Shown in pieces: positions 15,439 to 43,100 of a stretch of 64,000 nt of DNA. The notes beneath the pieces were generated by a model. That model did no database searches. It was not told where the DNA came from and saw only the letters and a program-made list of their open reading frames with translations. Made by a program: the position numbers and the translations under genes. This DNA comes from an uncultured Gemmatimonadales bacterium (lineage in GTDB: Bacteria > Gemmatimonadota > Gemmatimonadetes > Gemmatimonadales > GWC2-71-9): NCBI GenBank assembly GCA_963821525.1, contig CAWGED010000005.1, positions 352,001 through 416,000 on the forward strand, read 5' to 3'. Position 1 is the stretch's first letter, and every line of letters begins with the position of its first letter.

Positions 15439-16157
15439 GCCGGACCCGGGTTGCGACCGCGGTCGGGTGCCTCGCGGCAGCATGGCTGACGTCTGCCTGT
15501 CGCGAACGAGCCCATGCGGTGTGGGACGTCCCACCGCCCGGGGCGGTCAGCCAGGTCGACTCTGCGACGGCCGCCCTGAACGCGACTCTGGAGCCCGGCG
15601 TACTGGCAACGGTGCAGGCGGTGCCGGTCCAACGCTGGAAGGGACCGGGCAACGAGCCATTCGAAGTCGCGCTCCGCAGCGCGACTCCGGAGGCGGGACA
15701 CTCCCGAATGTTCGGCTCCATCACGCTGCCGATCGCGCTGCGTAGCCGGGCGGCGGCCATGAGTCAGTACCCCTGCACGTCATGCCACCAGGGCCGGAAG
15801 GTGGTCATGGCCAACAAGCGCATCAGCGACGCTCACAACAACATCAAGCCGGTGCACCCGGACCAGACCGGCGCCGTCTGCTCCACCTGCCACTCGGCCG
15901 ACGACGTCGAGCTGCTCACGCTCAAGAGCGGCGAGCACGCCACCCTGGACGAGAGCTATCGGCTGTGTGCGCAGTGCCACTTCGAGCAGGCGAAGGCGTG
16001 GGCCGGCGGCGGGCATGGGAAACGACTCGACGGCTGGGAGGGACGGCGGGTGGTCATGGCCTGCGCCGATTGCCACGACCCACACAATCCCGCTGTCCAG
16101 ACCCGCATCCCCTTCCGCGCGCCGGAACTCGAGCGAACCAGGAGCGCCGGCCCATGA
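15435..16157 (+). CDS. Tetraheme cytochrome c, probable lipoprotein
   Basis: LTSAC lipobox-like motif; CTSCH, CSTCH, CAQCH, CADCH. Confidence 0.8.
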   Translation: MSRTRVATAVGCLAAAWLTSACRERAHAVWDVPPPGAVSQVDSATAALNATLEPGVLATVQAVPVQRWKGPGNEPFEVALRSATPEAGHSRMFGSITLPIALRSRAAAMSQYPCTSCHQGRKVVMANKRISDAHNNIKPVHPDQTGAVCSTCHSADDVELLTLKSGEHATLDESYRLCAQCHFEQAKAWAGGGHGKRLDGWEGRRVVMACADCHDPHNPAVQTRIPFRAPELERTRSAGP

Positions 16158-17128
16158 GCGATGACGGCACCCCCCAGATGCCGGAGCGCGCCGACGGCAC
16201 CGTGCTGCAGAAGCGGGTCGATCGGCGGGAAGCGCTGGGCCTCCTGGTTGGCGGCCTGGCCGCCGGCGCTGCCGCGGTGGGCGCGTGTACCCCGCTCACC
16301 GCGGCGACGCCCGAGGAGCGCGAGCTCAAGCTCTTAGCCTGGCGGGAGTACATCAAGGGCAATTACCACTTCATGACGGAGGAGGAGCGGGCGGAGACGA
16401 TCGCTCGTCTCGAGCGCCTCGCGAAGCTGCAGCGCGGCGTGGACGTGACTATCCAGTCCACCGGGGCACAGCCCGGCGTGATGTTCGGCTACGCCTTCAA
16501 TATTTCGAAGTGCAAGGGGTTCCGGAACTGCGTCGAGGCCTGCATCAACGAGAACAATCTCGATCGGCGGGCGGCGACGCAGTACATCCGCATCTTCGAG
16601 ATGGAGGACGGCGAAGTCGACCTCGACCTCGCCGATGCGACCTTCCAGCACGAGGTGCCGGCCGAGGGCCACTTCTATCTCGGGACCCAGTGCTTCCAGT
16701 GCGCCGATCCCCCGTGTGTGAAGGTCTGCCCGGTGGGCGCCACCTGGCAGGAACCGGATGGCATCACGGTCATCGACTACGACTGGTGCATTGGGTGCCG
16801 CTATTGCATGGCCGCCTGTCCCTACTGGGCGCGGCGCTTCAACTGGAGCCAGCCGGAGGTCCCCCAAGAGGAAGTGAACCCCAACCAGCACTACCTGGGC
16901 AACCGCGCGCGCAAGAAGGGCGTGGTCGAGAAGTGCACCTTCTGCATCCACCGGACCCGGCAGGGCCGGTTGCCGGCCTGCGCCGAGGCCTGTCCCACAG
17001 GGGCGCGGGTCTTCGGCAACCTGCTGGATCCCGACTCCGAGATCCGCTGGGTGCTGGCGAACAAGCGAATTTTCCGGCTGAAGGAAGAACTGAAGACGGA
17101 GCCGCGTTTCTGGTACTTCACCGACTGA
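16154..17128 (+). CDS. NrfC/PsrB/DsrO-like iron-sulfur subunit, copy 1
   Basis: DRREALG twin-arginine-like leader; CKGFRNCVEAC, CFQCADPPCVKVCP, CIGCRYCMAACPY, KCTFC...PACAEACP. Confidence 0.9.
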   Translation: MSDDGTPQMPERADGTVLQKRVDRREALGLLVGGLAAGAAAVGACTPLTAATPEERELKLLAWREYIKGNYHFMTEEERAETIARLERLAKLQRGVDVTIQSTGAQPGVMFGYAFNISKCKGFRNCVEACINENNLDRRAATQYIRIFEMEDGEVDLDLADATFQHEVPAEGHFYLGTQCFQCADPPCVKVCPVGATWQEPDGITVIDYDWCIGCRYCMAACPYWARRFNWSQPEVPQEEVNPNQHYLGNRARKKGVVEKCTFCIHRTRQGRLPACAEACPTGARVFGNLLDPDSEIRWVLANKRIFRLKEELKTEPRFWYFTD

Positions 17129-17135
17129 GGCGACC

Positions 17136-18430
17136 GTGCACCTGAAGCCATTCCTGCTCACAGCCCTAGACTCGGCGACCACCGGGGGCCGGCGCTACCA
17201 CCTCTGGATGGGGAGCCTGACGGCGATCATCCTCGTCGGGGCGTACGCGTATTCCCTCCAGCTGCGCTACGGACTCGGCGTCACGGGAATGAGCGATCAG
17301 GTGAGCTGGGGTCTTTACATCTCGAACTTCACCTTTCTCGTCGGCATGGCCGCGGCCGCCATGATGCTGGTGCTGCCGGCGTACATCCTGGACGACGTGG
17401 ACTTCGGCCGCGCGGTGCTGATGGCGGAAGGCGGTCGCCGTGGCGGCGCTGGTCATGTGCCCTCGGGTTCGTGGTGGTGGACATCGGCAACCCATTCGCC
17501 GGGTGGCACCTCGTGCCCGGCATCGGCTACCTGAACTGGCCGCGGTCGCTCCTGGCCTGGGACGTGATCGTGCTGAACGGGTACCTGGCGCTGAATCTGG
17601 CCATCCCGTTCTACATCCTCTACAGCCACTACTCCGGCCGTTCGCCGGCCAAGAACAAGTACCTCCCCTGGATGTACATCTCCGCCATGTGGGCGGTGAG
17701 CATTCACCTGGTCACGGCGTTCCTGCTGGCGGGCCTGCCCGCCCGGCCGTTCTGGAACACGGCGCTGCTGGGGCCCCGGTTCCTGGCCTCGGCCTTCACC
17801 GCGGGGCCGGCGTTCGTGCTCGCTGCTGCTCTGGTTCATCCGGCGGAAGACGAAGTACGCCATTGCCGATGGCGCCTTCTCGAAGCTCGCGCTGATCGCT
17901 GTCGCCGCGGCGCAGATCAACCTCGTGATGCTCATCTCCGAGCTGTTCTACGAGTTCTACTCGCCCACCCATCACGGCATCAACGCGCGGTATCTCTTCT
18001 TCGGCCTCGGCGGGCACCACGCCCTGGTGCCCTGGATCTGGACGGGGATCGGGCTGAATGTCCTGCGCGACCGTCGCCCTCATGATCCACCCGCTGCGGC
18101 GCAAATCCGCGCTGGCTGATGCCGGCCTGCGCCACGCTGTTCGTGGGCATCTGGATCGAGAAGGGGATCGGCCTGGTGATCCCCGGCTTCATTCCCTCGC
18201 CGCTGGGCGAGATCGTCGAGTACACGCCCACCTGGGTCGAGCTGTGCGTGACCGCCGGCATCTGGGCCCTGGGCCTGTTCGTGCTGACCGTCCTGGTGCG
18301 GGTGGCGCTGCCGATCGAGCTGGGGGATGTGCGCAGTCCGTACCTGGCGCAGGCGCCCGCCGCGCGGGCAGTCCGCCCGCGCGCGACCCGGGCGCGGCAC
18401 GAGGACGTCCGGCCAGTCCGGACCCGATGA
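17136..18430 (+). CDS. NrfD/PsrC/DsrP-like quinone-interacting membrane subunit, copy 1 (indels)
   Basis: GVTGMSDQVSWGLYISNFTFLVG, DIGNP, SLLAWDVIVL, HLVTAFL, EKGIGLVIPGF, EYTPTWVE. Confidence 0.85.
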
Positions 18431-18481
18431 TCCGACGCTGGGCACTCCGCCGGCCGACTTTACTTCCACGAGGTGATGGAC

Positions 18482-19361
18482 ATGACCAGACACTAGGCCA
18501 AACGACACCCGATACTCCTTCGCCGCGCTCGCCGCGGGGCTGGTCGGGGCGGCCGGGCTGGCCGGCGGGCTGTTCCTCGCGGGGGTCGCGCCGCCGCTGG
18601 CCGCGGTGGCGGGCCTGGGATTGGGGCTGCTCCTCGCCGCCTCGATCAAGTACACCGACCAGTGGGAGAAGGCGGTCCTCCTGCGGCTCGGCCGCTACCG
18701 GGGCCTGCGAGGTCCCGGGTACTTCGCCATCGTGCCGATCCTCGATCGGGTGGCCTACACCATCGACCAGCGGATCCGGACCACGGCGTTCGGCGCCGAA
18801 TCGTGCCTGACCCGCGACACGGTGCCGGTCAACGTCGACGCCATCGCCTTCTGGATCGTGCGCGACGCCGAGCGCGCCGCGCTGGAGGTGCAGGACTACG
18901 ACGAGGCGGTCATCCTCTCGGCGCAGACCGCGCTGCGGGACGCCATCGGGAAGCACGATCTCGCGGAGCTGATCCAGTCCCGGGTGGAACTGGGCCACGG
19001 ACTCAAGGTGGCGCTGGAGCAGAAGATGGCGAACTGGGGGATCCAGGTGCAGTCGGTGGAGATCCGGGACGTCATCATCCCGGCCGCGCTCGAGGACGCC
19101 ATGTCGCGCCAGGCCCAGGCCGAGCGGGAGCGCCAGGCCCGCATCATCCTGGGCACTGCGGAAACCGAGATCGCCCACAAGTTCGTCGAGGCCGCGGCCG
19201 CCTACCGCGACCACCCCGAAGCCATGAACCTGCGGGCCATGAACATGCTCTACGAGAGCATCGTCAAGCGCGGCTCGCTCATGGTGGTGCCCTCAGGCCT
19301 GGCCGACTCCCTGAACGTCCCATCCCTGATGGGCGTGTCAGGGGCACCGAAGAGCCTGTAA
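18482..19361 (+). CDS. SPFH/stomatin (slipin) family protein, copy 1 (5' indels, shorter C-terminus)
   Basis: QWEKAVLLRLG, LTRDTVPVNVDA, AQTALRDAIG, SVEIRDV, QAQAERERQARII. Confidence 0.85.
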
Positions 19362-19440
19362 CCCGGAAGGGAGGCGCAGGACCCCAGATGCACAACTGCC
19401 CCTTCCGCCCTGAACTGGAGCGTACCAGGAGCCACGGCCC

Positions 19441-20420
19441 ATGAGTGACAACCGCATCCCCGAGATGCCCGAGAGCGCCGACGACGGCACCGTGCTGCAG
19501 AAGCGGGTCGATCGCCGGGATGCGCTGGGCCTCCTGCTCGGCGGCCTGGCCGCCGGCGCTGCCGCGGTGGCCGCGTGTACCCCGCTCACCGCGGCGACGC
19601 CCGAGGAGCGCGAGCTCAAACTGCTCGAATGGGAACAGTTCACCCAGAAGCACTATCGCCGGATGACCGAGGAGGAGCGCGCAGAGACCATCCAGCGGCT
19701 CGAGCGCCTCGCCAAGCTGCTCCATAACCAGGACGTCACCATCGCCACTACCAATGCATTGCCGGGAGTCCTCTTCGGCTACGCCTTCAACATCTCGAAG
19801 TGCAAGGGCTACCGGCGCTGCGTCGAGGCCTGCATCAACGAGAACAACCTGGACCGCAAAGCGGACACGCAGTACATCCGGATCTTCGAGAACGGAACAC
19901 GGCGTGGTCAATCTCAACGATGCCGATGCGACCTATCCAACACGAGGTGCCGGCCGAGGGCCACTTCTACCTCGGGACCCAGTGCTTCCAGTGCGCCAAC
20001 CCGCCCTGCGTCCCGGTCTGCCCGGTGGGCGCCACCTGGCAGGAGCCCGATGGCATCGTGGTGATCGACTACAACTGGTGCGTCGGATGCCGGGCCTGCA
20101 TGGCCGCTTGCCCCTACTGGGCGCGGCGCTTCAACTGGGACGTGCCCGAGGTGCCCAACGAGGAAGTGAACCCCAATCAACACTACCTCGGGAATCGTGC
20201 CCGCAAACAGGGATGCGTCGAGAAGTGCACCTTCTGCATCCACCGGACCCGGCAGGGCCGGTTGCCGGCCTGCGTCGAGGCCTGTCCCACCGGGGCGCGG
20301 GTCTTCGGCAACCTGTTGGATCCCGATTCCGAGATTCGTTGGGTGCTCGCAAACAAGCAGGTCTTCCGTCTGAAGGAAGAGCTCGCGACGGAACCGCGCT
20401 TCTGGTACTTCATCGACTGA
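19441..20420 (+). CDS. NrfC/PsrB/DsrO-like iron-sulfur subunit, copy 2 (indels near 19890-19940)
   Basis: Same Cys motifs as copy 1 (CKGYRRCVEAC ... CVGCRACMAACPY). Confidence 0.85.
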
Positions 20421-20427
20421 GGCGACC

Positions 20428-21721
20428 GTGCATCTACGAGCCTTCCTGTTGAGCGCGCTGCGCTCCGTGACCTCCGGCGATCGCCGCTACCATCTCTGGA
20501 TGGGGAGCCTGACGGCGATCATGCTGGTCGGGGGCTATGCCTACCTCGTCCAGGCCACCCACGGGCTCGTCGTCACGGGGATGAACGACCATGTGAGTTG
20601 GGGACTGTACATCTCCAACATGGCGTTCCTCGTGGGGGTGGCGGCCGCGGCGGTGATCCTGGTGATGCCGGCGTATGTCCTGCAGGACGTCGACTTCAGC
20701 CAGGCCGTCCTCATCGCCGAGGGGGTCGCGGTGTCCGCCCTGGTCATGTGCCTCAGCTTCGTCACGGCCAACAGTCCGGGCTTTCCCTGGAAGTGGTGGC
20801 GCCTCACGCCGGTCATCGGACTGCTAAACTGGCCCAGCTCGATGCTGGCATGGGACGTCATTGCCCTGAACGGCTACCTGGTGCTCAACCTCACCATCCC
20901 GTTCTACATCCTCTACAGCCACTTCACCGGACGCGAGCCGGAGAAGAAGAAGTACGTGCCGTTCATTTACCTCTCGGTCGTCTGGGCGGTGAGCATTCAC
21001 CTGATTACCGCGTTTCTTTCGCGGCCCCACCGTCCCGCCCCCTGTGGAACTCGCCGCTGCTTGGGCCCCGCTTCCTGGCCTCGGCCTTCACGGCCGGCCC
21101 CGCGTTCATGATCCTGTTGCTCGGGTTTATCCGGTCGACCAGCCAAGTACCCCATTTCGGACATGGCCATCTCGAAACTGGCCACCGCCACCACCGTGGC
21201 GGCGCAGATCAATCTCGTGATGCTCTTTTCCGAGCTGGTTTACGAGTTCTACTTTCCCACGCATCACAGCATCAGCGCGCGATATCTCTTCTTCGGCCTC
21301 GGCGAGCATCATGCGCTGGTGCCGTGGATCAGGACCGCGGATCACCCTCAACGTCGTGGCGACGTGGTCGCTCATGATCCACCCGCTGCGGCGTAACCCG
21401 CGCTGGCTGATGCCGGCCTGCGCCACGCTGTTCGTCGGCATCTGGGTCGAGAAGGGGATCGGCCTGGTGATCCCGGGCTTCATTCCCTCGCCGCTGGGCG
21501 AGATCGTCGAGTACACCCCCACCTGGGTCGAGCTGTGCGTGACCGCCGGCATCTGGGCCTTGGGCCTGTTCGTCCTGACCGTCCTGGTGCGGGTGGCGCT
21601 TCCGATCGAGCTGGGGCATGTGCGCAGTCCCTATCTGGAGCAGGGGCCCGCCCCGCGGGCAGTCCGCCCGCGCGCGACCCGGGTGCGGCACGAGGACGTC
21701 CGGCCGGTCCGGACCCGATGA
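20428..21721 (+). CDS. NrfD/PsrC/DsrP-like membrane subunit, copy 2 (indels)
   Basis: VTGMNDHVSWGLYISNMAFLVG; C-terminal part almost identical to copy 1. Confidence 0.85.
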
Positions 21722-21763
21722 TACGACGCTGGGCACTCCGCCAGCCGACTTTACTTCCACGAG

Positions 21764-22753
21764 GTGATGGCCATGACCAGACATAGAGCAAACGACACCC
21801 GGTACTCCTTCGCCGCGCTCGCCGCGGGGCTGGTGGGGGCGGCCGGGCTGGCCGGCGGACTGTTCCTCGCGGGGATCGCGCCGCCGCTGGCCGCGGTGGC
21901 GGGCCTGGGACTGGGGGTGCTCCTCGCCGCCGCGATCAAGTACACCGACCAGTGGGAGAAGGCGGTCCTCCTGCGGCTGGGCCGCTATCGGGGCCTGCGA
22001 GGTCCCGGGTACTTCGCCGTCGTCCCGATCCTCGATCGGGTGGCGTACACCATCGACCAGCGGATCCGGACCACGGCGTTCGGCGCCGAATCCTGCCTGA
22101 CCCGCGACACGGTGCCGGTGAACGTCGACGCCATCGCGTTCTGGATCGTGCGCGACGCCGAGCGCGCCGCGCTGGAGGTGCAGGACTACGACGAGGCGGT
22201 CGTCCTCTCGGCGCAGACCGCGCTGCGGGACGCCATCGGGAAGCACGATCTCGCGGAGCTGATCCAGTCCCGGGTGGAGCTGGGCCACGGGCTCAAGGTG
22301 GCGCTGGAACAGAAGATGGCGAATTGGGGGATCCAGGTGCAGTCGGTCGAGATCCGCGACGTCATCATCCCGGCCGCGCTCGAGGATGCCATGTCGCGCC
22401 AGGCCCAGGCCGAACGGGAACGCCAGGCCCGCATCATCCTGGGCACGGCGGAAACCGAGATCGCCCACAAGTTCGTCGAGGCCGCGGACGCCTACCGCGA
22501 CCACCCCGCAGCCATGAACCTGCGCGCGATGAACATGCTCTACGAGAGCATCGTCAAGCGCGGCTCGCTCATGGTGGTGCCGTCAGGCCTGGCCGACTCG
22601 CTGAACGTCCCATCCCTGATGGGCGTGATGGGTGCCACCGGACTGCTGCCGCGGGATGGCGAGGCCAAGGCACCGGTGATGGGAGGTGGGGCGGCCACGG
22701 TCGCGCCTGGGGCGCCTGCCCCCAGCGCGGCGGAAACCGGGAAGGCGCACTAG
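21764..22753 (+). CDS. SPFH/stomatin (slipin) family protein, copy 2
   Basis: Intact ORF with the same SPFH motifs as copy 1. Confidence 0.9.
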   Translation: MMAMTRHRANDTRYSFAALAAGLVGAAGLAGGLFLAGIAPPLAAVAGLGLGVLLAAAIKYTDQWEKAVLLRLGRYRGLRGPGYFAVVPILDRVAYTIDQRIRTTAFGAESCLTRDTVPVNVDAIAFWIVRDAERAALEVQDYDEAVVLSAQTALRDAIGKHDLAELIQSRVELGHGLKVALEQKMANWGIQVQSVEIRDVIIPAALEDAMSRQAQAERERQARIILGTAETEIAHKFVEAADAYRDHPAAMNLRAMNMLYESIVKRGSLMVVPSGLADSLNVPSLMGVMGATGLLPRDGEAKAPVMGGGAATVAPGAPAPSAAETGKAH

Positions 22754-24193
22754 CAGATCCTCCCCTGCGTTTGACTGCTCCGGAATAGTATTCCCATGGC
22801 AGGCGGCGCAGGTCTGGGGGTTCTTGCGCTTCATCCGCTCGGCATCGAACCCCGGCCCGTGCGGATTGAAGCTGCGGCCGCTCTGGGCCGAGTGACACGC
22901 CAGGCAGTCCCGCTCGGAGTGGCAGGCGACGCAGGTCTCGATGTTCTGCCGTGCGGCGGTGCCGTGATTGAGGAGGAAGACACCGCTGGCGTCATGGTAT
23001 CCCGGCTGCAATTTGCCGGGCGACACCAGGCCGGCCTGCTGATGGCAGGTGACACAGAATGCGGCCTGATTGTGGCACTCCGCGCACTCGGCCTGCCGAT
23101 TGAAGGCGGCGGCGGGATGCCGGGTCAGGAATCCAGCCGGGTGGTAGTTGCCCGCTGCTCCTGCGTTCGGACGGTGGCATTCCAGGCACTCGGCGCGCTC
23201 GTGGCAGGCGCTGCAGGTGCCCGGCGATGAGCCGGCGAGCGGGCCATGCTTGTCCACGAAATCGGCCGAGTGGGATGCAGGCCGGCCCCGTTCGATGCGC
23301 GCACCGATCCCTCGTCCCGGTCCACTGGCCGGAAGCAGCAGGACCACGTTGGGCGGGGCGCGATGGCAGGCCATGCAGCTCTCCTGCGTGTGGCAAAAGG
23401 CGCAACTTCCCGGGTCCTTTTTGGCATTCCCCCCGTGCTGCGAGAGAAACCGGCCCTCCTGGTGGGAGGCCGGCGCCTCTAGCTCGGCCTTGATCGCCAG
23501 CGAGCGGGGATCAACTGCCAGAGCCTGGATCGCCTTGACTTCGGGCGCGTTGACGTGGCACTGAACGCAGAAGTCCCGCGCATGGCAGATGGAACAGCTC
23601 AGTGTGCTGCGCTCCGCCTGGTCGCCATGACCCTTGGAAGAGAGGAACGCCGTGTCATCGTGCGACGCGGGCTTCTCGAACTTCGCCACCCGCGCCTCCG
23701 GCAGGGCCGTTGCCTCAGCCAGCGGGAAATGGCAGGTGCCGCAAGCGGTGTCGGGGGCGGAGAAATGCGCCGTTCGGATCCCGTGGCAGTCGAGGCACTG
23801 GGCTGAAATGGTGCGCCGGACGGTCAACCAGCTAGCCCCCGAGGGGATGTGGCAGGCAGGGCAAGCGAGGGCGGAATCGGCCGGGAGCTTCTCGCCTGAC
23901 TCCCGCGCATGCTCGGCGTGGGTGAAGCGGAAGTTCGAGGGATGAGCCGGGGGTGGTGACCAGTCCACCTTCTTCTCGATCGAACCGTCATGGCAGACGG
24001 CGCAGGACTCCGGAGAGGGATAGACTGGGCGTCCAGTTTCGGTGATGCCGGCGTGACATCCCTGGCATTCCGGAAAGACCTTGCGGTGCTTCTCGTGGTC
24101 GAAGACGTCGCGGTCCTGGCGGAGCACTGCGCTGCCGAAGGCGCCGAGCAGGATCACGAGGCCCGCGGCAAGTGGGATGCTAGGGAGCCTCAT
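22583..24193 (-). CDS. Multiheme cytochrome c, 16 CxxCH (3' end uncertain)
   Basis: MRLPSIPLAAGLVILLGAFG signal; FDHEKH; 16 CxxCH with paired CxxCH-x4/5-CxxCH repeats; ORF runs into the convergent gene. Confidence 0.85.
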   Translation of the reverse strand: MRLPSIPLAAGLVILLGAFGSAVLRQDRDVFDHEKHRKVFPECQGCHAGITETGRPVYPSPESCAVCHDGSIEKKVDWSPPPAHPSNFRFTHAEHARESGEKLPADSALACPACHIPSGASWLTVRRTISAQCLDCHGIRTAHFSAPDTACGTCHFPLAEATALPEARVAKFEKPASHDDTAFLSSKGHGDQAERSTLSCSICHARDFCVQCHVNAPEVKAIQALAVDPRSLAIKAELEAPASHQEGRFLSQHGGNAKKDPGSCAFCHTQESCMACHRAPPNVVLLLPASGPGRGIGARIERGRPASHSADFVDKHGPLAGSSPGTCSACHERAECLECHRPNAGAAGNYHPAGFLTRHPAAAFNRQAECAECHNQAAFCVTCHQQAGLVSPGKLQPGYHDASGVFLLNHGTAARQNIETCVACHSERDCLACHSAQSGRSFNPHGPGFDAERMKRKNPQTCAACHGNTIPEQSNAGEDLLVRLPGFRRAGGRRPRRDRGRPTSHHRCLGLAIPRQQSGGTHHAHQGWDVQRVGQA

Positions 24194-25673
24194 CGCCGCC
24201 CTTCTCGCCGGACAGCGGGCGGGAGGGGCAGCCGGTCGGCGCTCGAGCCGAAGAGCCAAGAGAGGGTGGCGCTTACCCGAGTCTGGGACCAGTTGATGGT
24301 GGAGGCATCGGGCCGCTTGCGATCCTCGTCGTATCGGGTTGCCCCGAGGCCGAGGCGTAGGCGTTCGGTCGCTCGGAGATCGATGGAGAGACCATACCAG
24401 GTCAGCGCGGGGTCCTCTACCCGGTACTCGAGCGGTCGAACCAGGTGGCCTGCCTTGCGCCGTGAGAGTCATGGCGTGGGTCGGCCGCACGCTGAGGCTC
24501 CCATCCACGCCTTGGGAGGCAGCGCCGGGTCCGAATTCGGCCTGATAACCCCCGTCAATACTTACGGCTGAGGAGATGCTGTACCCCGCCCCCGCGTTCC
24601 AGCGCCAGCCTTCGGTTTCCTCTGTGAGCAGCGGTGTTTCCGCTTCGGCGTCCGCGTACCAGTAACGCTCCCCGCCACCGCGGAGCGTCAGGCCGCGCAC
24701 CGGTGACACCCACAGCGAGCCGTTTACGGCGGAGTACGGCACCGGACTGAACACGCCCCAGAGGCTCCAGAGGTCGAAGTAGGGACGGTAGCGCCTGATG
24801 CCTACTGCCCCGCCGAACCGCGTCTGGCTGTGGCGGAGGGTCAGGTCCGCGTTGCCCCACCAGCCCCAGGCGAGATCGTAGTCGGCGCCCCCGGTGAGGC
24901 TCCAGCCGGTGAGGGGACGAATGGTCGCCGAAAGGGCCATCCGCTCCGAAACGAAGTTCCGAGTGTCCCGGTCGACCTCGCGCTCATAGTCCAAGCCGCG
25001 CGTCCACCGTGCGGCTCTGCCATTCGACGGCGCCCCCGGCAAGGAGCTGCCGTGACGGGGGCTGGAAGTCGTCCAGGGGGTTCAGCGCGTCACTGGTCAC
25101 GGGGAGGGCGCTGCCCCTCGCCAATCCAAGACCCACATAGCCGATCGCGGTCAGCCCTTGCTTCGGGAAGCGATAGGCCAGGCGACCTCCGTCGTAACCG
25201 TAGTACCCGAGGCGCCCGCGCTCGATCTGCCGTCCGAGTCGTGCGGTGAAGCGATCCGCGGCGTACTCGCCGTACCCCTCCACCAACTGCACGGCGGGAT
25301 CGGTCCCCGGCCAGACGTCAGAGCTGCTGAGATCCGCGCCGACCCGGGCATTGGCATGCAGGCTGAGGCCGTGCACGCCGAAACCCCAGGCCGTGAGGTC
25401 GGCGCTGGTCATGAACGGGCCGCCATGGAGGATCGGGCCCGCGCGGAAGAAGTAGCAGTAGGTTAGCCCGGTGCAGCTGACAGCGTAGCCGTCCGGAGTC
25501 TCGGGGCCGCCGCTGGGGCCGGTCACGACCTGACCGGCCAGGATGCTGTCTTTTTGGACGCCCCGATACGAAACGCTTTGTACTCGCGAATCGAGCCGGA
25601 CCAGGTATTCTTGCGCCCTCCCTACGGCAGGGGCCGCGAGCAGCAGCAGGGCCCATCCCAGCCCGGCTTTCAT
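24190..25673 (-). CDS. Putative outer-membrane beta-barrel (porin; indels near 24990 and 24455)
   Basis: Signal MKAGLGWALLLLAAPAVGRA; ARLGRQ...YDGGRL and many amphipathic strands; ATGA overlaps with both flanking cytochrome genes. Confidence 0.7.
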
Positions 25674-27633
25674 CCCGCCTTCGCTGGCTTGAGGAGCCGT
25701 GACCGGTACTGACCGGGCTCGGCCTGCAGGTGACAGGTTGTGCACTCCCGCTCGGGATGGTGATCCACGTCGGCGTCGTGGCAGGCCAGGCAGAAGGACC
25801 GGGTGGGCGACAAGGGTGCGATGGCGGCGGTCGCATGGCAGGCGTCGCAGGCGATGTGCACGCGCACCGGCTGGGCGTGGGGCTCCCGGATCGTCGCGGT
25901 CCGGTGGCACCACGCACAGTCGCGCCCGCTCGGCATGGTGCTTGTCGTGGCAGCCCTCGCAGGTGGTGACCGAGTCTGCCGGATGGAGAGTGACTTGTTC
26001 GGAGTGGCAGTCGGTGCACTTGATATCAGAGTGCTTCTCGTGCGGGAAGCCCACAGGCCGATGACGCGCCGGCTTGCCGGCGGCCGCGATAGAGACATCC
26101 ACCTCGACGGTCGAAGGCATCTCGCCCGCCTCATGGCAGGACGTGCAGTCGCTACGCTGGGGGGCCTGGTGGTGGCAGATCTGGCAGCCACGCGGCGGTG
26201 CGAAGGTGAGCTTTTGCGCCGGACCTGCTGAGGTGGCAGGTGAGGCACGGCAGCTTCTGATGTATGGGATGTGAAAATGTATCGCTCTGCGAGGCGGGGA
26301 GGGCGTTGAGCGCCTTCCTCGGGGGATCATCCCCAGGCAGCGCGTCACCTTTCCCTTTGCTGGGTCGCTCTGGTTTGACTGCGGGGGACTCAGGGGCCAG
26401 CGAGTGTTGGAGCGCCTTCAGGGTATCGAAGGGAAGCGGCGGCTGAATCTTCCCGCCCGGGTTGCGGGCCCGCACGGCCTCATGGCAACCGGTACAGTCA
26501 CTGGCGTCCACCCGAGCCGCGTGCGGCTGGTGGCACAGGGTACACTGTTCGACCTTCGCGCGGTGCGCGGCCCCGGTGTGGAACGGATTCTTGCGCCAGT
26601 CGGCATGGCAGGCCGCGTCGGTACAGGATTTCTTCGTCTCACCCTTGTTGAGCTGACTATGCGGGTTGTGGCACATGCCGCAGGTGCCGCGGTGTGGATC
26701 CTCACCCACCGAGAAGTTCGGCAGCAGCCCCTCCATCTGGTGGCAAGACAAGCACTGCTTGATGTTGGGCCGAAGGGCACCTGCCGCGGAGTCGCGGGTC
26801 GCGAGGGCCGCTACTTGCGTGGTGAACTTGTGGCAGACGATGCAGTGGAGATCCGTCTGATCAGCCATCTTGCCGAGCTTGATCCTGCTGTCCTCGGTGA
26901 GGTGGCACCCCTTCTGCACGCAGGTGCTGTCGGCCGGCATGAACCGGTGTGCCGTCCGGGCGTGACAGGTGAGACACTCCACCTTTCCCTTGAGCGCCGA
27001 GGAGTCCGACTCGAGGTGGGTCCGATGCCCCGCCGTAGCCGCTATCGCCTGCCAGGTCTCCTTTGCTGCACCCTGCACGTGGCATGCTTCGCAGGTCGTC
27101 CGCGGTACCTTGGCGTGGGGCGGGATCTCCTTGCCGCGTATGCCCGACATCCAGAAGATGAGCTTGACGGCCTCCTTCGTCGGGTTGAGCGGGTGGCAGG
27201 TATGGCAGCTGATGCTATCGTGCTTGCCTTCCAGCTTGGGGACGATGCTATAGAAGCCGGTGTCGGGTGGGCGACCGTCTGACCGCTGGGCACGAAGATG
27301 TGACAACCGTTGCAGAACCGCTTGTCGGTTTCGACGAACTGGTAGCTCTGGTACCCCATGCCAGCCGCCACCATGAGCGCGACCACCGCGCCCCCTGCCA
27401 GGGCGAGCTTGATACCGCCACTCCGGGTCCGAAGCCAAGTGAAGAACGCGACCCGGCGGGGCCAGAACCAGCGCAGGAAAAGGAAGGCCAACCCGCCCGC
27501 CAGCACCACGCCCCCCCACATGACCCACGGCGAGCGCTGGAACAGCCATTGGATGATGGGCGTTAGTCGGTCGCTCGGACGGCGCGTGTTGGCTGTCGAC
27601 CGGGAAGGCAAGGAAGGAAAGGTTGTGGAGCAT
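25670..27633 (-). CDS. Membrane-anchored multiheme cytochrome c, ~20 hemes, NapC/NirT-like N-terminus (indels; start uncertain)
   Basis: Two TM segments, then ETDKRFCNGCH...H...CHTCH; 18 CxxCH plus 2 CX4CH after joining frames. Confidence 0.8.
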
Positions 27634-27714
27634 GTCGGTATAGAAAATACCCGCCCCGGCAAAAGGAACATCGCCGGGGCGGGTGAGACTCCGCGTCACC
27701 AAGGCGCGCCCCAA

Positions 27715-29406
27715 TCAGTGCGCGGATGCTCTCATGACGATCTTTTCAGTTGCCGGTGCCATCCGGAGCTGCCCACTTCGGATCGCACGCTGGATCTTCT
27801 CCTGCATCGCCGCTGGCGGCGCGGGCAGGAACCCTCCGTAGTTGGCTTCCAGGTCCGCAATCGATGACAACAGCAGTGCCCGGTACAGGAACGGATTGTG
27901 CACGCCGTGCGATCCGTCGGGATGGCCGGACAGCTCCTCACCGAGCATCTGAGCGTTGAACAGCGCACCCTTGGCCGGCGTGGGCCTTGCGGCGTTGGTC
28001 GGGTCGATCAGCGGTCGAAGATCGAGCTCTTCCGGCGCGTTGAGCTGTATCTTGGCCAGGTAGCCCAGTGTCCGCCGGGTAGGCATCCAGTTTCTCGTCG
28101 CCATTGAGGTCCACCCACAGTACATCGAGGTAGCCCTCCTTCTCGTCCCTGATGCTGTTCAGCAGCTGGACTGCGACGGGTTCACTATGGCACCCCGACG
28201 CCGCGCAGGCGGCCCACGATCTGACTGGGTTGGTCATAGGCGCACGAGTTGTCAAACGTCGTATCCACGACACCCGGGCTGCCGGGCATGAAACAGGGCA
28301 GCGGATGGAAGCTGTGGCCGCTGTACGAAACCGGGTTGCCGCCGGCGTCCACACCGGTAAGGGCGTTCACGTGGCAGCCGGCGCAGAGCCGCGGGTTCGT
28401 CTCCGACCCGTGGGTCGCGAGAATTGCAGTGGTGTCGTATACGGTCCCCGGCGGGAAATACCCTGCGGTCCCGAACAACACGGGCCCCTGCGTGGCGTGC
28501 GGCCCACGGGAATTGGTGGGGGTGGGATCAGGCGTCCGGTTGTGGCAGTGGGTGCAGAGGTTCACCTCAATGACCGGCGAGTTGATCGGGAAGCGTAGCT
28601 GCCCTTCCCAGGGTAGGTTCGTCGCCGGATCCCTGGCCGTGCCGTGTGGATCGTGGCAGACCGCACAGGTCTGCGGCAGGAGCGTAGTGGTCCCCAGCTC
28701 CTTGTAGACGGTATTGACTCCCCACGCAGCCAAGGCTCCCTTCGCCTCGTGGCACGGCTGGCACTCAGCTCGGGGGGCGGGGGTCGCGTTGAGGATCCCG
28801 TGCCGGGACGATTTCCATTCCTTCAGGTAATTGTGGTTCCGCGAGGGTCCGGCTCCCTGGTGGCAGCCCCCGCAACCCGAGTTGACGATGGCCGCAGTAT
28901 CCGCCGCGGTCGGGGGAGGGGTGTTGGGGGGTTCAGGAGGGAAGGCCATGATGCTCGGAATGGGACGGGTTGCCACGGTCGTCGGATTCTGAACGTGATC
29001 GTACCCGGCCCGTGACAACTCTCGCACTGAACGTCGTAATAGGCCGCGGTCCTTCACCGCGTCGTAACCCACGCTGGCGGCAGCCTGGTTCCCGCGGGAG
29101 TTCACGGTGTGGCAGCCTTCGCAGGAGGGGTCGGCCGCCGGGTTGGCCTGCAGGGTTGTCCCAAGCGGTCGCATGTAGGGTCTGGATCCAGTCGGCCTGC
29201 TGGCCCACGTGACAGTTGCCGCAGGTGGTTTGCTGCTCGGACGCTGTGAAGTAGCCGAGGAAGCCGCTGTTGGCATCGGGTGGCGGATTGAAAGGCGGTC
29301 GGTCCTTGTAGACCGTGTCGGTACACCCGACGGCCACAAACGCGAGTAGCCCCAGCAGGACACAAATCCGCTGCGGCGACCCAATGGGAGAGAAGAAGCC
29401 CGTCAT
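27715..29406 (-). CDS. Multiheme cytochrome c lipoprotein, ~9 hemes (indels)
   Basis: VAVGC lipobox; CGNCH...W..T.HA.A, CEGCH, VQCESCHGPG, CGGCH, CQPCH, CAVCHDPH, CTHCH, CAGCH, CAASGCH. Confidence 0.8.
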
Positions 29407-29588: not shown

Positions 29589-30239
29589 TCAGACTGATCC
29601 GGTTGGCAGCGCGGTCACCTTCCGCTTCTTTCGTTTGAGCCGGGCTAATCGGGCGTGTTCCTCCCGTTCCCGCTCCTCCAGCACCGCCCGGATACGGTTC
29701 ACATCGGTTCGCAGGGCCGGAGCCAGGCGGCGTTCCAGGGTATTCACCTGGCGCGAGGTCTGAGCCAGCGCCAGCCCCAGGCGTTGGAGCAGCAATTCGC
29801 GCGGAGCGGCGTCCAGCAGCAGGTCGGTCAGCCGCTCGAACCACTCGGCGGTTCGGATTGCCGATCCGGTACTGCTCCCGGGCCCGAGGCCACGGGCGCT
29901 TTGAGAGCGCGGAACCCTGGGACGATCGATGAGTTCCGATACCGCGATACCCCAGACCACACCCGGCCGGATGCCGACTCGAAGCTCCCGGGTGGGCCAG
30001 CCGAGGGCTCGCACCCCGTCGTATCCCTCTTCGCCGAGGACATCGAGAAGGGAAGGGTAGGCCCGGGCGGCGGCCTCCGCGATCAGGGCGCGGGCATCGG
30101 CGGCCGGTCGGGCCAGGCGGAACAGTTCGCTGACCAGCGCTTCCCGCTTGCGCCGCAGCAGGTCGCGTCCCCGGCCCAGCTGCTGGAGCCTTCGCTGGGT
30201 GTTCAGCAGGTTGAGGCGCGTCGCAGCGGTCGCGCTCAT
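29589..30239 (-). CDS. ntpD: V/A-type ATP synthase subunit D
   Basis: ATRLNLL, GRDLLRRKREALV, TSRQVNTLE, LEEREREEHARL. Confidence 0.9.
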   Translation of the reverse strand: MSATAATRLNLLNTQRRLQQLGRGRDLLRRKREALVSELFRLARPAADARALIAEAAARAYPSLLDVLGEEGYDGVRALGWPTRELRVGIRPGVVWGIAVSELIDRPRVPRSQSARGLGPGSSTGSAIRTAEWFERLTDLLLDAAPRELLLQRLGLALAQTSRQVNTLERRLAPALRTDVNRIRAVLEEREREEHARLARLKRKKRKVTALPTGSV

Positions 30240-31621
30240 GACTGGGTCGCCTCACCATGTCGGGCTGCCCAGGTCCGCTCCCGGATTCGGGTGAGATCCC
30301 CTCGCGGCAGAGTATCGAGCAGTTTCCATCCCACTTCGAGGGTCTCGGCGATGGTGCGCCGCGTCGTTCCCTGACCAACGAACTCCCGCTCGAAGGCGGT
30401 GGCAAACTCGAGCGCGCGACGGTCGGCCGGCCCCAGCCCTGCCTCGCCCACGATCGCCGCCAGCAGCCGGGCCTCGTTGCCCCGGGCGTAGACCGCGTAC
30501 AACTGATCGGCCCATTCCCGATGTTCCGCCGAGGTCCTCCCGGACCCGATTCCGGCGTTCATCAGCCGGGACAGGGAGGGAAGCACGTCTATCGGAGGCT
30601 GGATGCCGCGCCGGGCCAGCTCATGCCGCAGGACGATCTGTCCCTCGGTGATGTAGCCGGTGAGGTCGGGAATGGGATGGGTGATGTCGTTGTCCGGCAT
30701 CGTGACGATCGGAATCTGGGTGAGGGACCCAGGCCGGTCCTGGAGAATTCCGGCCCGCTCGAACAGGGCCGCCAAGTCGGTATACATGTAGCCCGGGTAC
30801 CCGCGCCGGCCGGAGATTTCCTCCCGGGCGGTGCCGATCTCGCGCAGTGCTTCACAGTAGTGGGTGATGTCCGCCATCACGACCAGGACGTGCAGTCCCG
30901 CGACGAAGGCGAGGAACTCGGCCTGGGCCAGCGCGACTCGCGGAGCCAGCAGACGTTCAATGGTGGGATCCCGAGCCTGATTGAGATAGAGCACGCTCCG
31001 TTCGATCGCTCCGCTGCGCTCCAGGCGATCGAGGAAGGTGCGCGTCTCCCGACTGGTGATCCCGATTCCGACGAAGATCACCGCGAAGGCCTCGCCACGG
31101 GGCGCGCGGGCCCCTTCCACGATTTGCATGGCCAGTTCCAGGCCCGGCAGGCCCGGGCCGGAGAAGACCGGTAGCTTTTGTCCGCGCACCAGCGTGTTCA
31201 TGCCATCGATGGCGGAGATGCCGGTTTCGATGAAGTCGGCCGGCCGGCTCCGGCGCACCGGGTTGATCGGGCTTCCCCAGATCGGCACTCGGGCTTCGCC
31301 CACCGGAGCGGGCAATCCATCGATGGGAACCCCGACTCCGGTGAACGCCCGCCCGAGCAGCTCGCGTCCCACAGTCGCAGAGGCAATCTCTCCCGTGAGG
31401 GTGACTTCGCTCGCCCGGGCCGAAAGGCCAAGGGTGTCCTCCAGAACCTGAATGACGGTCAATTCGGTTCCTGCATCGATGACCTGACCGCGGCGGGGCG
31501 GTTGATCGGGAAGCCGGATCGTGACCCATTCGCCCAGCGCCACCGCGGCAGTGCGCTCGAGAAACAGCAGCGGACCGGCGGCTCCAGCGGCACCGCGGTA
31601 GGTGCGAGAGATCGCGGTCAT
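30236..31621 (-). CDS. ntpB: V/A-type ATP synthase subunit B
   Basis: [53 protein letters not shown]. Confidence 0.95.
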
Positions 31622-33368
31622 GAGGCCACCGCTCCGGTTCCCAGTGCGGCGAGAGCGGTTTCCACCGCGGAAACCTGCGGTTCGAGCTGATTGGGCGCAC
31701 TGTCCCGCAGCGCGAAGAGTGCCTGGCGGGTGGGTTCGAAATCGAGTCCGACGGCGGTGGCGCCGCCTTCCAGGAGGGTCCCGGCTCTCCGGTGAAGTGC
31801 CACCAGCAACCGTATCAATTGATAGGTCTTCGGAATCGGCGAGCTGGCATCGTTCGGGTCGTAGGCGCTTTGACCCAGCACCGCCTCCCGGGCCAGTCGG
31901 GCGAGATCGAGCAGCACCCGATCCGAATCCTGAAGTGCTTCCGGCCCGACCAGCGCCGCGATCTCCCGCAACTCCTGTCCGCGCTGCAACAGGGTGAGCA
32001 GGGCCTGCCGCAGCTCGGCCCAATCCGCACCACCGTGCTCCGCGAACCAGGGCGCCGTGGCCTCGACGTAATGGCTGTAGCTCGTTTCCCAGTCGACGGC
32101 CGGGAACTGACGCTGATGCGCCAGAGCCGGATCCAGCGCCCAGAGCGCGCCGGTGATTCGCAGCGAGGCCTGGGTCACCGGTTCCGAGAGATCTCCTCCC
32201 GGTGGAGAAATCGCGCTGATCAGGGTCAAGGCACCCGAGCGTTCGGGGACGCCGAGTGCCCGGACATAACCGGCCCGTTCGTAGAATTGCCCCAGGCGAT
32301 TCGCGAGGTACGTCGGGTAGCCTTCCTCGCCGGGCATCTCCTCCAGTCGCGCACTGATTTCCCGCAACGCCTCCGCCCAGCGCGATAGGCTGTCCGCCAT
32401 CAGGGCCACCCGAAAGCCCATGTCCCGGTAATACTCCGCGATGGTGATGCCGAGATAGATCGATGCCTCCCGCGCCGCGACCGGCATGTTCGAGGTATTC
32501 ACTACCATGACGGTGCGATCCATGATGGAGCGCCCGGTCTGAGGATCGATGAGTTGGGGGAATTCGTGCAGGACCTCGGACATCTCATTGCCCCGCTCGC
32601 CGCATCCGATGTACACGACGATGTCCGCCTGGGCGTAACGGGCCAGGCTCTGCTCGATAACGGTCTTCCCGGTGCCAAAGCCACCCGGCACCGCGACCGT
32701 GCCGCCTTCGGCCACGGGATAGAGCAGGTCGAAGATCCGCTGGCCGGTGATCATGGGCCGCTGATCCGGCAACCGTTCCCTGACCGGTCGTGGAATGCGC
32801 ACCGGCCAGCGGTGGGCGAGGTGCAGTAGGGTTCCATCCTCCAATCGGCCCAGCGGCTCCGACAGCATGACCGGGCCACTCCGCAGTTCCTTCAAGGTGC
32901 CCTGCACGCCGGGTGGCACCAAGCACCCGATGGATGAGACCGGGTCGCTCCTCGATCTCACCCAGTACATCGCCTGAGGCTACTGCGGCTCCCGGGAGGA
33001 GCCGGGCCACGAAATTCCAGCTCCGGCTTGGGATCGAGAGTGGGACAGTCGATGCCCGGCGCGATGAAATCGCCGCTCAAGCCCGCCACAGTCCCGAGCG
33101 GCCGCCCCAGCCCATCGAGGACCGATCCCAGCAGTCCGGGTCCCAGGGTGATCGAGAGCGAGGTGCCGGTGAGAGTAACCGGCTCGCCGATCCGGAGCCC
33201 GGCCGTCTCTTCATAGACCTGTAGTGTCGCCGTGTCGTGTGAGAGGCGGATGACCTCCCCCAGTAGGCCGCGCTCACCGACCCGCGCGAGCTCATAGAGT
33301 CCGGCTGAACCCGCCGGGGAAACCTCGACCAGCGTGCCGGTGATCCGGCGAATCCGCGGGGTGTTCAC
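31618..33368 (-). CDS. ntpA: V/A-type ATP synthase subunit A (indels near 32950-33030)
   Basis: [18 protein letters not shown] (Walker A), [20 protein letters not shown]. Confidence 0.95.
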
Positions 33369-33694
33369 CGGAGCCTCACCCGGTAGCCGATCGCACGGCG
33401 CAGCAACTCCACGATGTACTGGTCGGATTCGACGCCGGCCGTCACCCAGGAGGGACCGGGAAAGGGCACAACCATCGGCAGCGGCCGTCGCGCCAGGTCG
33501 CGCCGGGTATCCTCGTTGAGCGACTGATGGATGCTGTCCTCCACGAGAACCAGTCCGACTTCCGGTCGCTCCGCCAATCGGGAGAGCAGAGCTGCGCCTT
33601 CCGCCGGACTTTCCACCTCCACCGGCCGCAAACCGGCGAGCATGAAGCCGGCTGCCACTTCGGGACGACAGAGCACCACCACGTTGTGTGTCAT
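33365..33694 (-). CDS. ntpF: V/A-type ATP synthase subunit F
   Basis: AAGFMLAG, LLRRAIGY; size and position in the operon. Confidence 0.85.
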   Translation of the reverse strand: MTHNVVVLCRPEVAAGFMLAGLRPVEVESPAEGAALLSRLAERPEVGLVLVEDSIHQSLNEDTRRDLARRPLPMVVPFPGPSWVTAGVESDQYIVELLRRAIGYRVRLR

Positions 33695-34703
33695 GCCACC
33701 TTCTCTCCGCTCCGGTCCGGGATCGGCGCTCCCATAGCACGACCCCAGATCAATCGCTGGAGCTGGACTAACTCGGCTCGAACCGAGAGGACGTACTGGA
33801 GAGTTGGCATCGGTCCCAGAGGGTCCAGGCGCGCGAGTCGGTGCGCCTCGCTCCGGCGCCACGAGAAAACGGCGCGGTCGAGCGCGGCAAGATCAGGGCC
33901 CTCGCGTTGGAGGATCGCGGCGAGCGGAGTGGGAGCGAGCACTTTGATCAAATACTCGATCCGGTCCTGCGGATTTGGCCGCCCGGTACTGGAGATGAAG
34001 TGCGCTCGACTCAGCGCCCGCCCACCCGGGATCCAGCAGTCCGTCGGGCGAAGCTCGCTCGAGTCGGTGAGTAACAGCGCCGAGCGCACGTTCTCGAGGT
34101 CGATCATCAGCTGGAGATCGGGCAGCAGTCGCGGCTCCGTGCGGGAGACCTGAGCGGTAGCTCGCTCGGCGAAGGCGCGCGCCAATCCCAGGTCGAGAGC
34201 CAGGAGATCGGGTCGTTCCTGTCCCACTACATCGCGGAACGGTGCCGCCAGTCCGTGACCCCAGATCGCGAGGGTGGTGCCGATGGCCCCGGGCGTGGAG
34301 AGTCGGGCCAGCTCTTCGAGCATTCGCGAGGGAAGGGCTCGGCGTGGGCAGCAGTCCCCGAAGGCGGGCCTCGGGAGCAGCGCCTTCTACCGCGCCGCGC
34401 GCCAGGGCTCGAAGACTGCGGCGATCTTCTGCCTCGTATACGACGGCCAGGGCGGCTACGCGGGGGCCTCCACACCAGCGGGCGAGCAGGGCAAGTCGGT
34501 TCCCCTCTACTCGACGTACTGCCGCTTCCAATTTCGCGGGAGTTGACGGGTCCGGATCCTGCTGGCACCCGAATACCTTTGGCCTCGAGTGCCGTTGCCA
34601 GTGCGGGAAGGTCGATGGCAGCGGCAAGCGCGGCCAACTCCACCGGCCCGAGCAAGTGCAGGCCGAGGCCCCGAACCCGTGCGTTCACATCGTCCCAATT
34701 CAT
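33691..34703 (-). CDS. ntpC: V/A-type ATP synthase subunit C/d (indels)
   Basis: VNARVRGL..HLL, IDLENVR, ELVQLQRLIWG; position in the operon. Confidence 0.75.
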
Positions 34704-35291
34704 GGGCTCTCCGGTCGCTCGAGCCAGGCGAGCAGCTTCATGCTCAGCTCGGGCCAGCTCTGCCTGAGCCGGGTGGCGAGGGTTGCATCGATGACCACCG
34801 AACCGTCCACCGTCGTGACCGTCATACCGCTGGTGATCGCAGGATCGGCCTGGACGGTAATGCCGGAACGCCCGTCCAGCGCGTCGCGCGCCCAGCCCAC
34901 GAGATCTGGCGGAGCGTGCACCACGGCCGGGAATCCCATTCACGTAGGTGAGGGCGCGATCCAGGTCGCGGCCCAGCCCGGAACGGTTCGCGGGATCCAG
35001 GGTTGCCGCAGGGAGTTTCGCTTCGACCGTGGCCAGCACCTGATCGAGCAACGTCTGGCGGCGACGGAGCATCTCGGCGCGGAGCCGGCGCCGCTCGACG
35101 AGCAGCACCCGCTCGATCTCCTCGCGGAGCCGTTTTTCCTGCGCCCGAAGTGTGCCGGCTCGCAAGGCATCGGCCTTGGCCCGGGCCGCGCTGCGCAGCC
35201 GGGTCGCCTCCGCTTCAGCGGCCTCCATGCGCTGCTCGGCGGTGCGAGCCGCATCGCGTTCCAGCGCGGCGAGGAGGTGGTCAAGCGCCAT
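34700..35291 (-). CDS. ntpE: V/A-type ATP synthase subunit E (indel near 34935)
   Basis: MALDHLLAALERDA coiled coil; C-terminal DGSVVIDATLATRL. Confidence 0.8.
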
Positions 35292-35297
35292 GAGGGC

Positions 35298-35518
35298 TCA
35301 GAGCCCGCCGCGGAGGATGATCAACACCGCCACCACAAAGCCCAGGATCGTCATCGTCTCGGGAATGGCGAGGAGGATGATGGCGGTCGTGCTCAGCTCC
35401 GGCTTTTCCGCAAGGCTGGCCGCCGCTGCGGGCCCGATCCGCGATTGCGCCCACGCAGTGGCCAAGCCGGAATACCCACCGCGATGGCGGCGCTCAAGGT
35501 GACCAGGACCGGGTTCAT
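35298..35518 (-). CDS. ntpK: V/A-type ATP synthase proteolipid (c/K), single hairpin (indel near 35465)
   Basis: Hand translation: MNPVLVTLSAAIAVGIP..ATAWAQSRIGPAAAASLAEKPELSTTAIILLAIPETMTILGFVVAVLI. Confidence 0.85.
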
Positions 35519-35521
35519 GAT

Positions 35522-39168: not shown

Positions 39169-39181
39169 CCGGAGGCCTCCC

Positions 39182-43071: not shown

Positions 43072-43100
43072 CCGACCGCGCGGAGCCTCGCTCGGCGCTC

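Follow-up and report, generated by a model that had tools for sequence, protein, structure and literature searches.

Whether, and by what parts, electrons could be led from the quinone pool to the cell surface is the question raised by a cluster of four adjacent minus-strand genes (22778-29406) in a 64,000-nucleotide stretch of DNA from an uncultured Gemmatimonadales bacterium, hereafter the window. The cluster encodes three multiheme cytochromes, with 9 + 20 + 16 = 45 motifs for heme binding between them, along with a protein predicted to be an outer-membrane barrel. A first-pass annotation had described this cassette as a self-contained porin-cytochrome system made up of a ~9-heme lipoprotein, a ~20-heme membrane-anchored cytochrome, a beta-barrel and a 16-heme exported cytochrome, the last three joined by ATGA overlaps, and had suggested that it might represent an unnamed family. 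The motif counts, the barrel model and the overlaps (Table 1) agree with this inventory, and of the proposed limits, 22750 and 29406, the upper one stands, while the lower one moves to 22778. Gene anatomy, heme counts, conserved gene order, co-occurrence and fold relationships, together with model-predicted structures of the barrel and of its complex with the 16-heme protein, make it fairly probable that the four genes form a trans-envelope electron conduit from quinol to the surface, and the cassette is conserved, and probably functional, in the phylum.

The four genes and the state of the assembly

The cassette is the largest cluster of CxxCH motifs in the genome, with 42 of the 233 motifs counted in six-frame open stretches of at least 60 codons over the whole genome. 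A genome of the same genus, G001, carries the locus (L013) with 91.5% DNA identity to the window over 6.7 kb, and encodes the four proteins in intact open reading frames of 560, 653, 493 and 471 amino acids, with heme counts equal to those of the window; these proteins are 89-96% identical to the window's pieces. Relative to G001, the window contains 13 single-base insertions or deletions (indels), seven in gene 1, four in gene 2 and two in gene 3 (at about 24995 and 24454). The stop codon of gene 4 reads GAG in the window (22780-22778) and TAG in G001, so that the reading frame extends to 22583, into an SPFH gene on the opposite strand. As genes 1-3 of the window are broken, modelling was carried out on the intact G001 proteins.

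The 13 indels and the lost stop could be read as those of a decaying pseudo-operon rather than of a misassembled intact one, a reading that would leave the interpretation of the family unaffected. However, genes near the cluster are broken likewise, for example by 13 gap openings relative to G001 in 2,515 bases (42157-44665), which makes assembly error the likely cause of the indels. Assemblies of the same type (L036, L039 and L052) show other scattered indels, all 45 heme motifs have been retained, and seven of the indels are absent from the short-read contigs of relatives, among the 12 matches listed. A pseudo-operon appears very improbable on this evidence, and both the indels and the lost stop are likely errors of assembly. 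In the sequencing runs searched, at most 0.18 of the sequence words were present and no raw reads of this strain turned up, and no habitat is assigned to the strain; gene 4 had no plasmid match.

Table 1. Features of the window, with the cassette first and its surroundings below
Feature	Positions	Strand	Basis
Gene 1, nonaheme lipoprotein cytochrome c with OcwA/OmhA (NrfA-family) fold	27715..29406	-	motifs, lipobox, profile, model
Gene 2, 20-heme cytochrome anchored by two membrane helices at its N-terminus	25670..27633	-	motifs, profile, helices
Gene 3, predicted 22-strand plug-less outer-membrane beta-barrel, heme-free	24190..25673	-	AlphaFold2 of intact twin, fold matches
Gene 4, 16-heme exported cytochrome c	22778..24193	-	motifs, conserved ligands, complex prediction
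ATGA overlap of the gene 2 stop with the gene 3 start	25670..25673	-	read directly
ATGA overlap of the gene 3 stop with the gene 4 start	24190..24193	-	read directly
Conduit 1	4073-9889	-	
Flavoprotein gene adjoining conduit 1	10243-11409		
NapA-like, multiheme and duplicated NrfC/NrfD-like + SPFH genes	12149-22753	+	
V/A-type ATP synthase operon	29589-37775	-	
NiFe hydrogenase large subunit	39059-40897	+	
ccmF	48699-50733	+	

Folds, hemes and ligands of the four proteins

Gene 1 encodes a lipoprotein (lipobox AVG-C, its cysteine invariant in 30/30 sequences) with eight CxxCH motifs and one CX4CH motif, and the nine heme motifs are kept in 120/120 homologues. By profile, its first matches among solved structures are OmhA (6QVM, E 1e-17) and OcwA (6I5B, E 1e-16), and the same pair heads the fold matches of its model (OcwA, Z 9.8, root-mean-square deviation (rmsd) 4.3, 230 aligned; OmhA, Z 9.3), followed by NrfA-family enzymes at Z 7-8; single-sequence searches of the PDB with genes 1 and 4 returned nothing at E 0.01. 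The nine motifs are collinear with those of OcwA, the model helices 406-427, 474-485 and 502-520 make up a C-terminal three-helix bundle, and six invariant histidines correspond to the bis-His heme set of OcwA. Published accounts describe the hemes of OcwA as six with bis-His ligation, one with His/Met and two that are open beneath His-His dyads (PMC6703420), and the non-bonding H282 and H381, which sit above the two five-coordinate hemes of OcwA and OmhA, as conserved in all (PMC9250108).

Gene 1 was mapped on OcwA by local HMMER alignments with an inferred numbering offset of +29. In the 120 homologues so mapped, the position of H381 is Ala in 101, Gly in 17 and unscored in two, and that of H282, the second histidine of the heme-2 dyad, is His in 39; in the heme-5 dyad the first histidine is kept and the second never is, and the segment matching that of heme 9 holds a His and no Met in 120/120. 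By this mapping, a fixed sixth ligand is likely absent at hemes 2 and 5 of gene 1. As H381 is universal in OcwA and OmhA and absent from gene 1, gene 1 is a relative of their clade rather than a member. Both of these best solved relatives act as Fe(III) reductases at the cell surface, and OcwA reduces Fe(III) oxide in assays and nitrite slowly (PMC6703420). Gene 1 may well be exposed at the cell surface, and it is likely the outer terminal component. Two cysteines outside the heme motifs (residues 369 and 386 of L013:7087-8766) are also invariant in 30/30 gene 1 sequences and possibly form a disulfide. Tandem copies of the OcwA-fold lipoprotein gene occur in L031, L046, L050, L054, L085 and L086, comparable to the MtrC/OmcA paralogues, and up to four gene 1 matches are found per genome (G125).

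The second gene carries 18 CxxCH and two CX4CH motifs. In the intact twin, two hydrophobic helices lie ahead of heme 1 (one or two across homologues), and the membrane helix is followed by FCxxCH and then by a second heme preceded by H. The head of the gene 2 profile matches NrfH (2J7A_C, E 5e-7) and its tail matches c7/c3 wires, and the conserved non-motif residues, 22 His and two Met for 20 hemes, offer enough ligands for all. Gene 2 is likely a quinol dehydrogenase joined to a periplasmic wire, as judged from these sequence features, and it is quite probable that it oxidises quinol; the proposal that the cluster has its own candidate for a quinol interface finds its counterpart in the NrfH-like head.

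Genes 1 and 2 could also form a periplasmic NrfHA-like enzyme that acts on nitrite, NO or hydroxylamine at the open hemes of gene 1, with the barrel and gene 4 as a separate or subsidiary module. The NrfH-like head of gene 2, the NrfA-family fold of gene 1, the slow nitrite reduction by OcwA itself and the likely open hemes 2 and 5 are all consistent with such an enzyme. However, a check for the catalytic CxxCK heme of NrfA/ONR nitrite reductases, with its Arg/Tyr/His triad, found no CxxCK heme and no conserved Lys in gene 1, in which all nine motifs end in His, and the H381 equivalent is Ala or Gly in 118/118 scored homologues.

Gene 3 contains no heme motif. AlphaFold2 predicts the protein of the intact twin as a barrel, with a mean predicted local distance difference test (pLDDT) score of 83.6, in which 22 membrane strands are counted, with long loops at one face, short turns at the opposite face and no plug; a barrel fold had been proposed, and the model and its fold matches support it. 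The matches include barrels of many kinds, with Z 17-18 for the TonB-dependent ones and Z 16.1 for MtrB (rmsd 4.7, 362 aligned). Because Foldseek and VIA-align rank MtrB on a par with TonB-dependent barrels and others (Z 16-18), the fold picks no family. The barrel reaches the cut-off of no Pfam or NCBIfam family, its profiles find no solved relative by sequence in the PDB, and MtrB_PioB (PF11854) matches neither the window's gene 3 pieces nor the intact twin, nor anything in genome G000. Pfam and NCBIfam searches with the cassette proteins gave generic multiheme matches alone: gene 4 has no NCBIfam match, and gene 1 scores 27 bits for TIGR03508, against a cut-off of 192, with no match for TIGR03507. 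The heme spacing had been called unlike that of decaheme MtrA and MtrC, in accordance with the absence of any PF11854, TIGR03508 or TIGR03507 match above cut-off.

Gene 4 encodes a signal peptide and 16 CxxCH motifs in one frame, with 29 residues per heme and 15 His and one Met conserved as further ligands for the 16 hemes, which suggests a wire with no obvious open site. In both gene 2 and gene 4, conserved distal ligands number about one for each heme, and there are 29-33 residues per heme, a wire-like ratio; about 33 is given for MtrA (PMC5566968). Modelling of gene 3 with gene 4 of the intact twin, a check proposed in the first-pass annotation, gave a complex score of 0.78, while the best of three controls scored 0.00; in calibration, the mark for this score was reached by 116/157 solved pairs and by 2/215 mismatched pairs. 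Contact agreement between runs was at least 74%, and the pLDDT of the partners was at least 73. Residues 337-465 of gene 4, which hold hemes 11-16, contact the outer loops and alternating strand positions of the barrel, and of 99 confident barrel contacts, 71 fall in extracellular loops, none in periplasmic turns and the rest mostly at alternating strand positions. Gene 4 is predicted by these models to thread the barrel from the periplasm and to place its C-terminal hemes at the rim on the outer side. When relatives of gene 4 as short as OmaB were searched for, mostly fragments came up.

Distribution, gene order and direction of electron flow

A gene 4 match was found in 28/41 near relatives of the window's genome. 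In an even draw of 301 genomes of the Gemmatimonadota, a phylum that is for the most part uncultured, the barrel occurs in 134 and gene 1 in 132; among the 135 genomes with either, 131 have both, three the barrel alone and one gene 1 alone; with kin among the genomes, which are not independent, these counts do not amount to a statistical test. Gene 4 directly follows the barrel in 40/40 loci chosen by the barrel only (L054-L093). Gene order was counted in the barrel loci with at least 5 kb upstream (69 of 80, with 11 dropped; 29 of the 69 were first found via gene 4). Gene 1 lies upstream in 63 of them, a whole gene 2 is present in 47, all four genes occur in 44, the 9-heme tail of gene 2 stands alone in seven, and gene 2 is lacking altogether in 14. 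L033, the DNA of which is identical to that of L013, was left out of counts, and frameshifted or partial reading frames were left out of alignments A1-A4. The barrel, gene 4 and gene 1 form a fixed core, and gene 2 is exchangeable; the cassette is self-contained, as had been proposed, in most loci but not in all. The counterpart of gene 4 has 16 hemes in most loci and 9-14 in a few.

This gene order also bears on the NrfHA-like enzyme, in which gene 1 and gene 2 would be partners. Gene 1 tracks the barrel and not gene 2, as the 14 loci with no gene 2 and the seven with its tail alone make plain, and in L031, L054, L085 and L086 the order is gene 1-gene 1-barrel-gene 4. Such an enzyme is quite unlikely.

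The slot of gene 2 in L089 (1528-8219) holds genes for a petB-like cytochrome b, a 9-heme protein, a NapC-headed 21-heme protein, an 11-heme protein and a b561-type cytochrome, contents that support the slot as the quinone interface, and the 9/21/11-heme pattern recurs in six further loci (L016-L018, L055, L064 and L070). These genes were considered as those of conduit 1, a second gene cluster of the window, and this was rejected: the 21-heme protein is NapC-headed, and conduit 1 has proteins of 16 and 23 hemes. Look-alikes in the "Atlas" are unnamed clusters, commonest in Gemmatimonadota, Myxococcota and Ignavibacteriota, and serve as leads only.

In the conduit that these parts suggest, quinol would be oxidised at the head of the membrane-anchored gene 2 protein, and its hemes would relay the electrons to gene 4, by way of a contact between the two that we infer. 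The gene 4 protein, threaded in the barrel, would bring them through the outer membrane and on to gene 1, which at the surface would pass them to extracellular acceptors. Such a conduit would work like MtrCAB plus CymA, or like the porin-cytochrome (Pcc) systems of Geobacter. Outward flow is, with reasonable confidence, the main direction. Fe(III) or Mn oxides are a plausible acceptor, though short of an even chance, and humic or quinone-like matter and other acceptors are each tentative candidates. The presence of ccmF and a NiFe hydrogenase in the same genome stretch was counted in favour of the conduit.

The same parts could also carry electrons inwards: in a cell that respires oxygen or N2O, electrons taken from Fe(II), reduced humics or partner cells would then feed the quinone pool. 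CymA-type and Mtr-type parts are described as operating both ways (PMC6295460), and variant loci contain a cytochrome b6/petB-like gene, a trait noted for PCC4-like systems (PMC13264449). However, the solved relatives of gene 1 are reductases of Fe(III) respirers, and the conduits of oxidisers, according to PMC4245776, often have no outer cytochrome, whereas here it almost always co-occurs with the barrel. A Rex-like operator, scored against a consensus, lies 100-190 bases upstream of gene 1 in 7/29 upstream regions (mean of shuffles 1.5, maximum 4), hinting at induction in an over-reduced cell; the carriers are L019-L021, L029, L041, L013 and L037, four of them from one family, and the window has none. 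The upstream regions contained FNR and Fur boxes at chance level and no sigma-70 promoter. Inward flow as the principal mode is unlikely.

Several observations weigh against the outward conduit. As it stands in the assembly, the copy in the window is broken, and the one RNA run was uninformative on expression, a control stretch and the cluster being covered alike (27 and 29 of 30 bins). The model of gene 1 is weak, with a mean pLDDT of 61 and Foldseek E-values of just 0.02-0.06, and a lipobox alone gives no proof of surface exposure. For gene 2, the cut-off of PF03264, the NNT domain of NapC/NirT/NrfH, which the N-terminal part of one homologue passes (24.9 against 24.1 bits), is reached neither by the window's protein nor by its intact twin. 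The methionine of CxxCHxM after heme 1, which we take to be a ligand in NrfH, is kept in 37/53 gene 2 heads and is missing from the window's clade. The score of the barrel complex may owe to likeness with the solved MtrAB. Finally, Ignavibacterium album, which bears a related Pcc cluster, is reported in PMC4245776 to show no growth on Fe(III) or Mn(IV) oxides. In its boldest form, the conduit would be a shuttle-free, phylum-wide 45-heme wire that ends outside in an NrfA-fold enzyme with two open hemes, and through which soil minerals or humics are respired alongside surface catalysis, and it would make Gemmatimonadota a large overlooked electroactive group that standard Mtr/Omc screens miss; this form is speculative.

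Several neighbouring features of the window were also noted (Table 1). Conduit 1 comprises repeat cytochromes of 16 and 23 hemes together with a barrel and a membrane protein, in a layout that recalls PCC3, and its barrel was matched in 18/101 genomes of the order. Between the two conduits lie a NapA-like protein, its score below the cut-off for NapA, as well as multiheme genes and a duplicated block of NrfC/NrfD-like and SPFH genes, which adjoins the cluster in G001 too; 4- and 5-heme genes of like pattern stand beside several other loci. The V/A-type ATP synthase operon, the NiFe hydrogenase large subunit and ccmF belong to an energy-metabolism island around both conduits.

Descent and relation to known conduits

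In a distant match, L053, a porin stands together with a 14-heme cytochrome and with a lipoprotein cytochrome in which one motif is atypical; porins of this type were matched in 96/151 genomes of its class, and their named homologues include Ignavibacteriales. In profile-profile comparison, gene 3 aligns end-to-end with the Ignavibacteria porins (98.5%, E 4e-15, 392 columns). The controls for the barrel profiles gave 0.2% for the reversed profile, 62% over 69 columns for MtrB and 71% (E 4e-5) for the barrel of conduit 1, the background level for barrels, in line with the earlier view that the two conduits are distinct. Gene 4 matches the Ignavibacteria 14-heme proteins (about 400 amino acids) at 99.9% over 311 columns with E 4e-34, where heme motifs by themselves give a background of E 1e-8 to 1e-16. 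By these comparisons, genes 3 and 4 are end-to-end remote homologues of the Ignavibacteria porin/14-heme pair, with about 18% identity. The neighbours of that pair (L094-L123 and L168-L179) are very varied and include a lipoprotein of up to 29 hemes.

In I. album, IALB_1839 and IALB_1838 (400 amino acids, 14 hemes) have been listed as a distant Pcc member by Shi et al. 2014, with 19% identity to OmbB and 24% to OmaB, respectively (PMC4245776), and Ignavibacteria clusters have been termed OmbB-like (PMC7399161, PMC6137239). The Ignavibacteria loci fit IALB_1839/1838 by class, length, heme count and order, not by a sequence match. By descent, the core of the cassette probably branches off, at a distance, from the Pcc (OmbB-like) lineage, a likeness drawn via the Ignavibacteria pair and not by direct comparison with OmbB or OmaB. 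A gene 1 orthologue was found in 0/12 Ignavibacteria loci, with a best score of 50 bits. The label of an unnamed family holds for the operon, but the barrel/16-heme pair has remote homologues in Ignavibacteria and the fold of the lipoprotein is known. No description of the cassette was found in the literature searched, a scope that leaves most subscription journals outside, and the unnamed porin-cytochrome clusters reported from cave metagenome-assembled genomes in PMC13264449 may include one.

The frequency of the barrel gene in the sampled Gemmatimonadota stands against that of MtrB (PF11854), which is above cut-off in 12/251 genomes of the phylum, and one Gemmatimonadetes case appears in a published MtrCAB survey (PMC8805035). 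If the conduit works, a common phylum of soil and sediment would be capable of far more extracellular electron transfer than screens indicate. The OcwA fold, in the literature covered characterised on Gram-positive cell walls only, would be found to terminate a porin conduit, and the OmbB-like Pcc lineage would be extended. Intact four-gene copies make the cassette directly testable.

Among characterised systems, MtrCAB with CymA of Shewanella (PDB 6R2Q) and MtoAB/PioAB share the predicted logic of a quinol dehydrogenase, a barrel-threading cytochrome with its C-terminal hemes outward and an outer lipoprotein cytochrome. In contrast to these, the cassette has no PF11854 porin and has 16 and 9 hemes rather than 10 and 10, and, unlike MtrCAB, it seems to need no soluble shuttle. 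PCC3 and PCC4 (He et al. 2017) are described as having a five-helix inner-membrane protein with two HX13H motifs (PMC5566968), which is absent from the four-gene cluster; the cassette is not MtrCAB, PCC3 or PCC4. Gene 2 resembles NapC/NirT/NrfH in its membrane helix and heme arrangement, but is extended to 20 hemes, and it has one or two helices where ImcH has three, together with a CX3CH first motif (PMC6295460).

Gene 1 shares with OcwA of Thermincola potens and OmhA of Carboxydothermus ferrireducens the nine hemes in the same order, the C-terminal three-helix bundle and the GxHN ligand, but differs from them in its diderm host, its place as a lipoprotein beside a porin, the His in place of Met for heme 9 and the incomplete dyads. 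In the Geobacter-like Pcc, whose nearest branch is IALB_1839/1838/1837 of I. album, a periplasmic multiheme cytochrome likewise comes after a porin of 18-22 strands, and a lipoprotein cytochrome is present as in the cassette (PMC4245776, PMC7399161). The periplasmic cytochrome of those systems has 5-14 hemes (PMC4245776), whereas gene 4 has 16, and the cassette differs further in its OcwA-fold lipoprotein upstream and in the 20-heme NrfH-headed protein inside the operon. Rather than an isolated family, the cassette appears from its sequences to be a form of the porin-cytochrome kind in which a Pcc-related core is combined with an outer cytochrome of the OcwA fold and with a fused wire at the quinol interface.

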